Of a DNA stretch of 64,000 nt, positions 2,353 through 62,708 are shown one piece after another. Position 1 is the first letter of the stretch; each line of letters opens with the position of its first letter. Under the pieces are notes generated by a model, which worked only from the letters and a program-made list of their open reading frames with translations, had not been told where the DNA came from and made no database searches. The DNA lies in contig OX597818.1 in the NCBI GenBank assembly GCA_951406725.2, positions 137,454,001-137,518,000 on the forward strand. The letters run 5' to 3'. This DNA is from Octopus vulgaris (Eukaryota). Position numbers and translations under genes: made by a program.

Positions 2353-3136
2353 CATGCATTATATAAGATAATTTTCCCACCTTACCAGCCGGCTGGCTTC
2401 ATTCAAAAGCTAAAACGATATATAACTACATCCGATAGTCTGGTCGATCCCGTAATCAATAAATATTATATATGTATATATGTACATATACATATATAGT
2501 ATATTCGCCGGTTTGGGGTGTGAGTATGCATGACGAAATATCTAATTTTCGGATAATGGATAAATATATTGTATCGTTATGTATTACATAACTTCAAATA
2601 TTATCTCTATCGACGTCCAAAATTTTTATACATATTTGATGCAGACATACAGCTCTACATAACCATTGCCATACGAACGCTTATATATTTATTTGCTACA
2701 TATACATAGACATCGAGGCATGCATAAAAGTGTATATTTATGTCTGTATATATATATATACTCTCCTTTACTCTTTTACGTGTTTCAGTCATTTGACTGC
2801 GGCCATGCTGGAGCAACGCCTTTTAGTCGAGCAAATCGACCCCGGGACTTATTCTTTGCAAGCCCAGTACTTATTCTATCGGTCTCTTTTTTGCCGAACC
2901 GCTAAGTAACGGGGACGTAAACACACCAGCATCGGTTGTCAAGCAATGCTAGGGGGACAAACACAGATACAAACACACATACATATATATATATACGACA
3001 GGCTTCTTTCAGTTTCCGTCTACCAAATCCACTCACAAGGCATTGGTCGGCCCGGGGCTATAGCAGAAGCCACTTGCCCAAGATGCCACGCAGTGGGACT
3101 GAACCCGGAACCATGTGGTTGGTTAGCAAGCTACTT

Positions 3137-5373
3137 TATTTCAAAACATTTGCCATAAAGGCAGTACACAGATTAAGTTAGCTTTGCGGGCTGGACGAGG
3201 ACATTAATGAGGTGAATGATAATGAAAGAAAGATGATAAGGATGGGAGAAGACAGAAAGCGCCCGCCGACTTTTGCTTCTCTAAAACATTGTTCTTTTTA
3301 AAAAAGATTAACACAAAACGAGGTATTAAACCTCTTACAATTTTTCCAATTTTGGGCTTAGCAGTCCATTATTAATACAAAACGAGGTATTAATTCTCTT
3401 ACAATTTTTCAATTTTTGGACTTAAGTCCATTACTAATAATACATATCGTCCTCGAAATAGCTTGTGCCCGCGCCCTCCACCATCAACCACGCCTCCCTC
3501 AGAACGTAGTCAAGTTCCGAGTTCGCGTCGCCCGGGACCAAGTTATAGTCTTCATTGAGCTCCTTTAGCCCTAGCGTCACGTCGAACGCCACGGCCTCCA
3601 CAGCTACCTGCGGAGGCCATTCGGGGTCCTGTGTGAAGGCTAAAGGTGCTCCCTTGTAGTGCTCTTCCATCACTTTTTCAATTTCTCCTCCTCTATAGAA
3701 GAGGACCAATACATTCAGTTCTTTCGTTGGCGGCACAGTTTCCGCCAACGGTATTCCTTCTCTTGTCGGTGGCACAACCCCAACCGACGTAGTTCCGCGA
3801 CATTCCGGTGCCACACTGACAGCCGGCAACGTCCCGTTTTTCTTCCTCTTTTTCTTTTTTTTTCCCTTTTCAACTGAGGGAGGGTGCGTCTCCTCCGTGG
3901 CTGGAAGATTCGCCCTCCTCTCCTCATCCCTATTATCCTTTGGTGAGCACCCATTGTTGCTCACCTTCCTCTTTCGGCCTCTGCTTGAGGAGTCCTCTGC
4001 TTTCTCGGCCGTTATCGTTCCCTCTTCTAGAGGGGTTTTACTTAACTGTTCCGGGATCCTATTTTGTTCCCGAGGACAGTTCTTCTTTATGTGGCCGGAC
4101 TCCAAGCACCGATGACACTTAGGGGGGCGACCCTCAAGCATCACCGGGTACCTGCACCCGGCCATTTTCAAAAAATCTGGAAAAACCAGATTGGCTGATT
4201 GGGTCCACAGGGTCAAAACTGCTTTCGAGCCAACCCAAGCAGCCGCAGGAAGAACTTTTACATTGAGGAGCTTAGTTTCGCTGTCACCCAGACCCCGGCG
4301 GATAGTCTCCTCTATCCACTCGGGTTCTATGTCGGGTGGCAGTCCGCAGATCCAAGCTTTCATTAATTTCTTTTTTTTGTAAGTGGGCAGGAATAAGATT
4401 TCCTTACCCTCCAAGGGTTCGCTAGCAAATTTGCAAGCCTCTTCAGGGGTGTCAAACAGCAACCACACCGTTCCATATTTGACACCCCTGGAAATGAATT
4501 TAATTGTTGGCAAATACTCCTCCAACTCCTCCTCAATTGCCGTCTTTTCGAATAGGGCGATGGTGTCAAGTGCCTTGGAGTAGGTTCTCAACACCACCGT
4601 CCTATCTTCACGGTCCTTCAACCACTTTTTGGGTGGTATGATTTCCCACTCCAAAACTTTGTTATTTTTCATTGCCATGTTTTTAAAAAATATATTCAAA
4701 TTAGACTCAAAAGCAGGAAGAAAAAAGTTCAAAAGTCTAAATAAATTTGATAGATTTTTGAAAAAACAAAAAGGAGAAAGCACAACAGAAGGGAAGAAAT
4801 TAACGGAAAGTCGCAATAAAGAAAAAACAAAAAGGGGGGGGGGGGTAAATGAAGTTCAAAAGAAAGTTAATAAACAGAAAAAACACAGCAAAAATATTCT
4901 GCGGTACTCCCGGCCTGGGTTGAACCTGGAACGCCGCAACTGCAACACAACCTCCACAAAAATGGGTCCGAAAGGTAATCCAATAGTGGCTTATTTTTAT
5001 ACTTTTCTTGCGAAGTACTCTGACAAGGGAATAAATTCAGCAAACTCAAACACAGCACTGGTTACTGCCAACGGTAATTTTAACAGTAACTGTATTGAAT
5101 CCTGAGTATACGCCCCTCCACTGTTTTTTTTTTTTTTTTTTTTTCAATGAACACAAAAACGGCAGCCGCCTAGCGCAGGCGAAATTGTCTCAGAGTTGGA
5201 CACAACCTACTGAAATAATAATTGGCACGCAATAAATTATGCCCAACTCACAATAAACAAAATCACTTACCTCGACAACTTTCCGTTTTTGGTATTTTTT
5301 CTTTAGTTGGAAGGAGTTTGTTACTCACGTCCACTCTAGCTCAACAGGAAGCAACCGACTAACTGCGCATGTG
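3137..5373 (-). mobile_element. ORF1-only non-LTR retroelement (Tx1/L1-type, HAL1-like architecture)
   Basis: Perfect 17-bp TSD TGGTTAGCAAGCTACTT (3120-3136 and 5374-5390). One long ORF, ~695-nt 5' region, ~300-nt 3' UTR, AATAAA straddling the 3' junction, and no room for an ORF2. Confidence 0.85.
3434..4678 (-). CDS. Tx1/L1-type ORF1 (gag-like) nucleic-acid-binding protein, 414 aa from the first ATG
   Basis: Uninterrupted ORF. RRM-like segments (KAWICGLPPDIEPEWI), FPDFLKMAGCRYPVMLEGRPPK followed by the CCHC knuckle CHRCLESGHIKKNC, basic patches RGRKRK and KGKKKKKRKK, and an acidic C-terminal segment. Confidence 0.85.
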   Translation of the reverse strand: MAMKNNKVLEWEIIPPKKWLKDREDRTVVLRTYSKALDTIALFEKTAIEEELEEYLPTIKFISRGVKYGTVWLLFDTPEEACKFASEPLEGKEILFLPTYKKKKLMKAWICGLPPDIEPEWIEETIRRGLGDSETKLLNVKVLPAAAWVGSKAVLTLWTQSANLVFPDFLKMAGCRYPVMLEGRPPKCHRCLESGHIKKNCPREQNRIPEQLSKTPLEEGTITAEKAEDSSSRGRKRKVSNNGCSPKDNRDEERRANLPATEETHPPSVEKGKKKKKRKKNGTLPAVSVAPECRGTTSVGVVPPTREGIPLAETVPPTKELNVLVLFYRGGEIEKVMEEHYKGAPLAFTQDPEWPPQVAVEAVAFDVTLGLKELNEDYNLVPGDANSELDYVLREAWLMVEGAGTSYFEDDMYY

Positions 5374-5657
5374 TGGTTAGCAAGCTACTTACCACACAGC
5401 CACTCCTGCGCCTATATATATATACGGCAGCTGAAGAAGGGAAATGTTCCTTGTATTGTTTGTCTTGTACTCTGTTTTTTTCGTTGTTAAAAAAAGTCCG
5501 TTTCCTTGTTTAGTTTTATGTTTTCGTTTCTCGTTGTGTTCTACGTTTATTTGTGGTGTTCTGTACTCATATATGCATGTATATATACATATAGATGTAT
5601 GTATGTATATATATATATATGTATGTATGCATGCATATGTTTTATTTATTAAATTGT

Positions 5658-11082: not shown

Positions 11083-11375
11083 AATAATAGATGTTCGCCT
11101 GGGGCTAAATGCATCAGTAACACCCCCACCACCCCGCCCTGACCCTAGCCACATTCAGATGGCTGATCCCCCTTATGTTATATATATATATATATATATA
11201 TACATATATACGACGGGCTTCTTTCAGTTTCCGTCGACCAAATCCACTCACAAGGCTTTGGTCCGCCCGAGGCTATAGTAGAAGACACTTGCCCAAGGTG
11301 CCACGCAGTGGGACTGAACCCGTAACCATGTGGTTGGTAAACAAGCTACTTACCACACAGCAACTCCAGCGCCTA
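10786..11375 (-). mobile_element. SINE family B (tRNA head, internal microsatellite, GTAAAAGA-repeat tail)
   Basis: Minus strand has A-box-like TGGCTGTGTGG-type head and B-box GGTTCAGTCCC. A ~100-bp foreign insert lies in the internal (TA)n at 11080-11180. Confidence 0.88.
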
Positions 11376-33066: not shown

Positions 33067-33252
33067 TAGGTGCAGGCGTGGTTGTATGGTAAGAAGCAAA
33101 TGTAATGAAATAAAGAAGCTTGCTTCCCAATCACGTGGTTTTGGTTTCAGTCCCACTGTGTGGCTCCTTGGGTAAGTGTCTTTTACTATAGTCACGAGCC
33201 GACCAAAGCCTTCTGAGTGGATTTGGTAGACGAAAGCTGAAAGAAGCCTGTC

Positions 33253-38392: not shown

Positions 38393-38565
38393 CATATATT
38401 CGACGGGCTTCTTTCAGTTTCCGTCGACCAAATTCACTCACAAGGCTTTGGTCGGCCCGAGGCTATAGTAGAAGACACTTGCCCAAGGTGCCACGCAGTG
38501 GGACTGAACCCGGAACCATGTGGTTGGTAAACAAGCTACTTACCACACAGCCACTCCTGCGCCTA
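38151..38565 (-). mobile_element. SINE family B, full length
   Basis: Intact head (TAGGCGCAGGAGTGGCTGTGTGG), internal (TA)/(TG)n, GTAAAAGA tail. Confidence 0.92.
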
Positions 38566-54786: not shown

Positions 54787-54942
54787 GAGTGGCTGTGTGG
54801 TAAGTGGCTTACTTACCAACCACATGATTCCGGGTTCAGTCCCACTGCGTGGCACCTTGAGGAAGTGTCTTCTACTATGGCCTCGGGCCGACCAAAGCCT
54901 TCTGAGTGGATTTGGTAGACGGAAACTGAAAAGAAGCCCGTC

Positions 54943-62311: not shown

Positions 62312-62708
62312 CTCTTTTACTCTTTTACTTGTTTCAGTCATTTAACTGTGGCCATGCTGGAGCACCGCCTTTAGTCGAGAAAATCGATCCCGGGACTTAT
62401 TCTTTGTAAGCCCAGTACTTATTCTATCGGTCTCCTTTGCCGAACCGCTAAGTTACGGGGACGTAAACACACCACCATCGGTTGTCAAGCAATGCTAGGG
62501 GGACAAACACACACACACACATATATATATATATACATATATACGACAGGCTTCTTTCAGTTTCCGTCTACCAAATCCACTCACAAGGCATTGGTCGGCC
62601 CGGGGCTATAGCAGAAGACACTTGCCCAAGATGCTACGCAGTGGGACTGAACCCGGAATCATGTGGTTGGTAAACAAGCTACTTACCACACAGCCACTCC
62701 TGCGCCTA
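62311..62708 (-). mobile_element. SINE family B, full length
   Basis: Intact copy showing the empty form of the site interrupted at 3120-3136. Confidence 0.92.

Follow-up and report, generated by a model that had tools for sequence, protein, structure and literature searches.

The window analysed here is a 64,000-nucleotide stretch of the Octopus vulgaris genome (contig OX597818.1, positions 137,454,001 to 137,518,000 of the forward strand). On its minus strand, a 2237-bp insert occupies positions 3137-5373 between identical 17-mers (3120-3136 and 5374-5390), and the identity of these flanks extends no further in either direction. The insert interrupts a SINE, whose 5' part (5391-5412, minus strand) carries an A-box-like motif at 5391-5402 and whose 3' part (2760-3136, minus strand) carries a B-box-like motif at 3095-3105, both boxes being visible by eye. 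The insertion would separate the two boxes and probably silence this SINE copy. No tRNA match was returned by ARAGORN for the whole window or by Rfam for the SINE copy at 62.7 kb. The SINE also carries CCTTGGG, a sequence noted for CORE/Ceph domains (PMC5786205). Comparison within the window reveals the empty target site in other SINE copies at 62668-62684, 11335-11351 and 38525-38541, with an additional empty site at 54818 on the opposite strand.

All parts of the insert described here lie on the minus strand. A single 414-amino acid ORF, hereafter ORF1, spans 3434-4678 and is preceded by a 5' UTR of about 700 nt (4679-5373). Two tandem copies of 62-71 bp, 87% alike in the window self-comparison, cover the end of the ORF and part of the 3' UTR (3307-3439). 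Downstream lie a bulged motif antisense to the first ~11 target bases (3175-3187, from a motif scan and shuffles) and a 3'-terminal hairpin of the form TGCC-loop-GGCA (3151-3163, from alignment and folding). An AATAAA crosses the 3' junction (3135-3140), its last two bases being derived from the target, and no poly(A) follows in the insert or its flank. On the opposite strand, a 155-amino acid ORF (4638-5105, plus strand) runs across the low-complexity 5' UTR and is probably spurious.

The sole Pfam match of ORF1 is a zinc knuckle at residues 187-202 (E 0.0077, under the curated cut-off), and Pfam finds no reverse transcriptase (RT) or endonuclease domain in the insert. The CCHC residues (188-201; 4076-4117) are also indicated by the protein's Atlas neighbours, which are of the CCHC/RRM type. 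An AlphaFold model of the N-terminal half (pLDDT 83) contains two RRMs at about residues 17-181 (4136-4630), and the best Foldseek matches of the model are the RRM pairs of hnRNP A1/A2B1 (E 5e-5, with a low TM of 0.3). The predicted architecture is therefore two RRMs followed by a CCHC knuckle. A protein search with ORF1 gave two matches, both Octopus sinensis models. ORF1 is homologous to the ORF1s of autonomous elements (24-34% identity over ~190 residues), and the insert thus encodes a LINE ORF1 homologue without an ORF2. The original prediction had described a 2237-bp insert holding one intact 414-amino acid CCHC-knuckle ORF, no RT or endonuclease, an AATAAA at the junction without poly(A), and empty sites at 11.3, 38.5 and 62.7 kb; each of these points is borne out, the knuckle match being weak.

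Genomic copies and the insertion site

Among 40 scored candidates, at least 31 full-length matches (94-100% identity, window copy included) are present in the source genome, and 9 further matches cover only bases 357-2237 of the element. All 30 of the best copies are 2.2 kb long and stop at one and the same base, where the SINE follows with no intervening poly(A) or ORF2. The exact 26-nt pattern of the 3' end, which holds no target bases, occurs 217 times genome-wide and is followed by A[AT]GTAG in 214 cases; each of the 30 first-listed loci continues into the SINE head. These observations confirm that the insert belongs to a multicopy ORF1-only family with fixed ends and did not arise as a one-off deletion. 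Insertion at random sites and an ORF normally continuing into ORF2 were the two outcomes that the original prediction had set against its non-autonomous, ORF1-keeping family and the possible targeting by it, and the copies display neither. Exact empty sites number at least 66,274 (~1e-5 of genome positions), compared with 469 filled sites of the tested form, or about 0.7% relative to the empty ones.

The element diverges by 0.29% (40 pairs) among the 19 best copies, a value biased towards youth because these copies were picked by similarity to the window element, whereas their host SINE segments diverge by 9.0% (171 pairs). This difference indicates that the insertions occurred independently. 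The outer flanks of the 19 copies are unique and unrelated, and a single element haplotype is found inside several host alleles. No overall preference for the host allele at target positions 11-13 is detectable (196/469 filled versus 27,671/66,274 empty sites), although the CTAAC allele hosts 20 of the 24 best-matching copies. All copies are co-oriented within one SINE family and most retain both SINE halves, features that also fit a composite unit in which SINE and insert retrotranspose together and share their site by descent. Such a unit is scarcely conceivable and is ruled out by the divergence contrast, since the host SINEs show 30 times the divergence of the inserts and are of different alleles. 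It is further contradicted by a host variant duplicated on both sides of the insertion at locus L010 and at window 33091-33119, and by the use of this one base by at least seven distinct families. The window case is a 15-bp insertion (33098-33112, plus strand) that resembles the 3' terminus of the lineage, occupies the equivalent position in another SINE copy and is flanked by a 7-bp duplication bearing its host's own variant. It represents an extreme 5'-truncated event.

The flanking 17-mers had been predicted to be a perfect 17-bp target-site duplication (TSD). Their identity stands, but only part of their length is duplicated target. With one truncated copy and five others of offset junction excluded, the informative cases are those whose host differs from the usual 17-mer. 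Positions 11, 13 and 15 provide 10 such cases, in 9 of which the 5' copy matches the element; at position 7, the single informative case matches the host. Other families start with their own target-like bases beyond the common first 8-9. Taken together with the duplication around 33098-33112, this inheritance of variants indicates a TSD of ~7-10 bp, the remainder being imitated by the 5' end of the element. In the window, the true TSD of at most 10 bp would correspond to 5381-5390 (5' copy) and 3127-3136 (3' copy, the conserved start of the target), and the target-like bases at 5374-5380, which are positions 11-17 of the apparent TSD, would belong to an element spanning 3137-5380. An apparently perfect TSD can thus be half element-encoded.

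A target-like 5' end that rebuilds a usable site would also explain the tandem stacks. At least five consecutive ORF1-only units occur at L067/L123 and pairs occur at L061-L063, L064 and L069, while ORF1-only copies and copies of the ORF2-bearing candidate helper described below are stacked directly at L045, L055 and L250. Dimers of a sister family and the element were considered as a unit that moves together and were rejected, as those at L004, L006 and L019 have different element haplotypes.

Several further observations concern the site and the element termini. The target region (window 5374-5397 and the empty sites) reads as an imperfect palindrome, with TGGTAAG...CTTACCA in the common allele, and might fold into a hairpin around the cut site. 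A GCGCATG-type motif starts several families (window 5362-5373; 5' ends at L061-L063 and L207); it resembles an NRF1 site and may be an internal Pol II promoter. At locus L126 (G000:C1:39263522), the usual site holds a 90-bp copy made of the first 45 and last 43 bases of the element; a mini-element family was dismissed, as the exact pattern gave one copy only. In most of 20 loci (L154-L173), the same SINE base holds a second SINE family, whose Tx1-like tail ends in AATAAAGAAAT and which lacks the antisense motif.

The ORF1-only lineage and its candidate helper

The ORF1s of sister families are ~65% identical in their N-terminal halves. The dN/dS comparison that the original prediction had called for gave ratios of 0.11-0.27 for residues 8-205 in all 15 pairs of six ORFs, and of 0.38-0.58 for the C-terminal half in 14 pairs (0.09 in the closest pair). 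These ratios indicate that ORF1 is under purifying selection. Values of dS between major families lie at 1.1-1.8, near saturation and therefore rough. The family was predicted to be young, which holds for the window family; the ORF1-only lineage itself, judged by dS above 1, is old and comprises several families. ORF1 is open in 14 of the 30 best full-length copies, and many of the breaks fall at homopolymer runs. A supposed subfamily frameshifted at residue 186 was discarded: its C6-to-C5 run change is present in diverged copies too, making slippage or assembly error as likely.

In an unrooted tree of 12 proteins, a long branch (100/100) separates six ORF1-only proteins from six autonomous ORF1s, and the tree tool flags long branches; the tree therefore names no donor. 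Some ORF1-only families are mosaics in which the first 356 nt or the 3' 614 nt have been swapped (L064-L069; L139, L143, L144, L150), and the ORF of L067 (105-1298) takes its N-terminal half from one family and its C-terminal half from another. Such mosaics may come from template switching in stacks.

Helper candidates were sought at a sample of 30 SINE sites where the base preceding the target is not T; two of them contained ORF2 remnants. Among 30 loci holding relatives of these remnants, 28 share the same terminal base, which lies no more than 22 nt from where the match stops; for the other two, the target lies at +192 in one and was not found in the other. A younger related family has open frames of 1140-1150 amino acids, and its two fetched copies are 5.4 kb long, 99.4% alike and inserted in the SINE head. 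It has two ORFs, the second of which (1133 amino acids) matches Exo_endo_phos, RVT_1 and zf-RVT in Pfam and has L1 ORF2p as its best solved structural relative (E 9e-67), consistent with an L1-group protein bearing APE, RT and a C-terminal zinc motif. Its ORF1 is frameshifted in the two fetched copies and open at 467 amino acids in 2 of 7 further copies, so that both ORFs are open in 2 of 9 checked copies, all of which have an open ORF2 frame. In 106 of 109 cases, the target directly follows the exact 3' end of this candidate helper, compared with the >20% of flanks taken as a target preference for Tx1 elements (PMC4494074). Its assignment to Tx1 is suggested by architecture and targeting; the 120 listed relatives of its RT, almost all of them unnamed, include no named Tx1 reference, a named match being from Argonauta. 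With 97% specificity for a short site, such a helper is relevant to work on site-specific gene insertion.

The original prediction had proposed a partner sharing the terminal ~150 nt. A partner at the same base does exist, and what it shares with the ORF1-only element is shorter: the last ~36 nt, which include the terminal hairpin and are 78% alike (BLAST alone gives E 0.085), and a short motif. The AATAAA across the junction is also the same in both. Apart from these and the distant ORF1, the two elements have no likeness. The window ORF1 is 29% identical to the helper ORF1 and 34% identical to that of another autonomous family; being no closer to the helper than to others, the ORF1-only element did not arise from it by a recent deletion. 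From the common site and 3' end, we infer that the helper mobilises the ORF1-only element in trans.

Mobilisation could instead depend on other Tx1-like families or on several helpers, the co-located element being merely a neighbour. The genome holds many autonomous families, and an earlier helper search with zf-RVT returned 30 loci of other families, only one of them at the SINE site. A target-like 5' end adjoins one copy of a different family at L081/L161, the SINE site is shared by a second ORF2-bearing family (L186, L250), and the window ORF1 is not closest to that of the candidate helper. Against this view, the combination of a GGCAAAT...GAAATA terminus with the antisense motif is restricted to families at the SINE site, other families ending at different targets, and we consider it very unlikely. 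The preferred conclusion, held with good confidence, is that an ORF1-only family fixed on one base of the SINE head is copied by TPRT with the ORF2 of the co-located full-length element.

The 3' end and the proposed mode of insertion

Every family at the SINE site carries AGCTA(A)CT, or a near variant, which is the reverse complement of target bases 2-8. In ORF1-only clusters the motif is present in 52/55, 9/9 and 3/3 ends, and in ORF2-bearing clusters it is present in 11/11 (young), 9/11 and 6/10 (older) and 2/2 ends; because the families are kin, these counts amount to one or two independent observations. None of nine ends of the second SINE, which occasionally lands at the site, has it. Exact antisense matches are 6-10 nt long. 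For 9 of the 11 representatives, the shuffle P does not exceed 0.026; P is 0.17 for the window family (6 nt exact, bulged motif) and 0.06 for one sister. Among 11 ends of other autonomous families, with junctions placed by eye, no motif antisense to the family's own target was found (P 0.27-1.0). In 11 of 11 representatives, motif and read-through tail are paired in the minimum-energy fold, enclosing the terminal stem region; the predicted tail-UTR pairing (7.6-10.8) overlaps that of three of 11 controls (7.1-8.4).

The motif lies at -42 to -50 in ORF1-only families and at -64 to -81 in ORF2-bearing families. It is retained where the 3' UTRs do not otherwise align, and the target sequence is constant across the families that bear it. 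One alignment, short and ambiguous, places the motif on opposite sides of a common pyrimidine tract, which hints at relocation or re-creation of the motif. An internal AATAAA is present in the ends of most other autonomous families and is absent from the families at the SINE site, where the target completes AATAAA.

In the proposed mechanism, Pol II transcription would be driven by the element's own 5' UTR, and the RNA would be packaged by the ORF1 protein that it encodes, a role put forward for HeT-A-type elements. No run recorded as RNA is listed among those containing the element. In four sequencing runs guessed to be RNA, contigs contain most of the element and two of them stop at 5383, near the inferred 5' end; these stops may correspond to a graph branch, contigs cannot show RNA ends, and the runs carry no weight in the argument. 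The transcript would read through into the SINE, use the AATAAA completed at the junction and gain ~10 or more target bases. The APE endonuclease of the helper would nick at the 3' edge of the A-box-like motif, making a 7-10-bp staggered cut, and the helper ORF2 would copy the passenger RNA by TPRT after recognition of the shared hairpin. The read-through tail, first folded onto the antisense motif, would anneal to the nicked DNA primer strand, and copying would begin precisely at the junction, leaving out any poly(A). After insertion, the target-like 5' end would restore a usable site. We lean slightly towards the steps of read-through, folding on the motif and annealing to the primer strand; tail annealing would explain the exact, tail-less 3' junction.

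It is also possible, if somewhat doubtful, that targeting is purely the work of the helper endonuclease, the antisense motif being an old relic of target capture or an ordinary stem for RT recognition, so that no read-through RNA would be needed. Target choice in Tx1 elements is described as set mainly by the endonuclease (PMC4494074), the second SINE reaches the same base without the motif, and the other site-specific autonomous families here lack a motif antisense to their own targets. Conversely, persistence of the motif at differing positions in otherwise unalignable 3' UTRs, together with the absence from SINE-site families of the internal AATAAA that most other families possess, argues against this view.

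The reading in which the read-through tail anneals to the primer strand has a stronger form, which we regard as rather unlikely. Here the RNA would carry both target strands, and its hairpin would swap partners with the DNA duplex, the tail pairing with the primer strand and the antisense motif or its cDNA with the other strand, thereby fixing both the RT start and the ~9-bp second cut. If this were true, part of the targeting of an APE-type LINE would be programmed by RNA, and copies landing elsewhere would be unable to propagate, as their poly(A) signal would lack the bases that the target supplies.

Relation to known systems

Tx1-clade elements target other transposons, snRNA genes and microsatellites (PMC4494074). 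Known cases include Tx1 in Tx1D, Tx1-Mar in Mariner-N4, Keno in U2 snRNA and Dewa in a tRNA spacer, with SINEU as a passenger (PMC4494074, PMC3706591). The helper resembles them as an APE-RT element at a fixed site in another repeat, and SINEU resembles the present passenger in sharing the target of an autonomous element; co-transcription with the target is also discussed for these systems. Unlike in those cases, the octopus elements insert into the promoter region of a SINE, as judged from boxes seen by eye, which offers at least 66,274 exact sites, and unlike SINEU the passenger encodes an ORF1. No antisense motif in the 3' UTR is mentioned in the parts of the Tx1 descriptions consulted (PMC4494074, PMC3706591).

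LINEs with ORF1 alone have been described in the Jockey, L1 and CR1 clades (PMC5786205), and new families can arise from ORF1-only telomeric lineages (bioRxiv 10.1101/2025.06.09.658640). HeT-A and other ORF1-only telomeric elements of Drosophila share with the octopus lineage the lack of ORF2, the head-to-tail stacks and the emergence of new families (bioRxiv 10.1101/2025.06.09.658640, PMC5786205). HeT-A depends on a co-targeted ORF2 family, a dependence that is likely to apply here as well; it belongs to the Jockey clade and resides at telomeres, whereas the present elements are of L1/Tx1 type, dispersed inside a SINE and flanked by a TSD. By analogy, the system would work like HeT-A with a helper, in an L1/Tx1-type lineage with a SINE target.

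HAL1 (half-L1) and Ag-Sponge are likewise non-autonomous LINE derivatives with ORF1 only and a helper-like 3' end (PMC5753468, PMC5786205). In contrast to HAL1, the octopus element has strict site specificity, no poly(A) tail (in 30 of the 30 best copies) and a predicted RRM-RRM-CCHC ORF1, and is thus not a HAL1 in the strict sense. HAL1 derives from a vertebrate-type L1 with a poly(A) tail.

Annealing of read-through RNA has been reported for R2Ol and R1Bm/SART1, in which target sequence at the RNA 3' end is reported to improve the accuracy of priming (PMC6795142, PMC7265360). Those systems involve the sense target sequence, while the present families have an additional antisense copy inside the 3' UTR. 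A study of octopus repeats lists 13 recently active L1-Tx1 families (PMC13282606), and the words "target", "ORF1" and "nested" do not occur in its main text. The parts of the system are known from HeT-A, HAL1 and Tx1 targeting; their combination, an ORF1-only element with a helper at a SINE site, was not found described in the full-text literature searched, and Repbase, Dfam or the supplements of PMC13282606 may hold these families.

The three levels form a nest of a SINE host, an autonomous LINE and several ORF1-only passengers. Because this nest offers young copies and open ORFs, two questions become testable, namely why non-autonomous LINEs retain their own ORF1 over long periods and what share RNA-DNA pairing has in the site choice of APE-type LINEs.

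Other families of this group also have apparent targets of their own. A bicistronic family that forms a head-to-tail array of five copies (L108-L111, G000:C2:73.04-73.07 Mb, and L116) targets a different repeat, with the flank AGGAAGCGACACC. Apparent fixed targets were also seen for autonomous families at L115, L117, L118 and L095 (GAAATTCGGCAAAG), at L094 and L100 (ATCTTCAGCTAGC), at L120 and L121 (the GTAAGGTTGGTAG region) and at L119 (an ATT microsatellite). Elements of this group with site specificity seem to be abundant in the genome.
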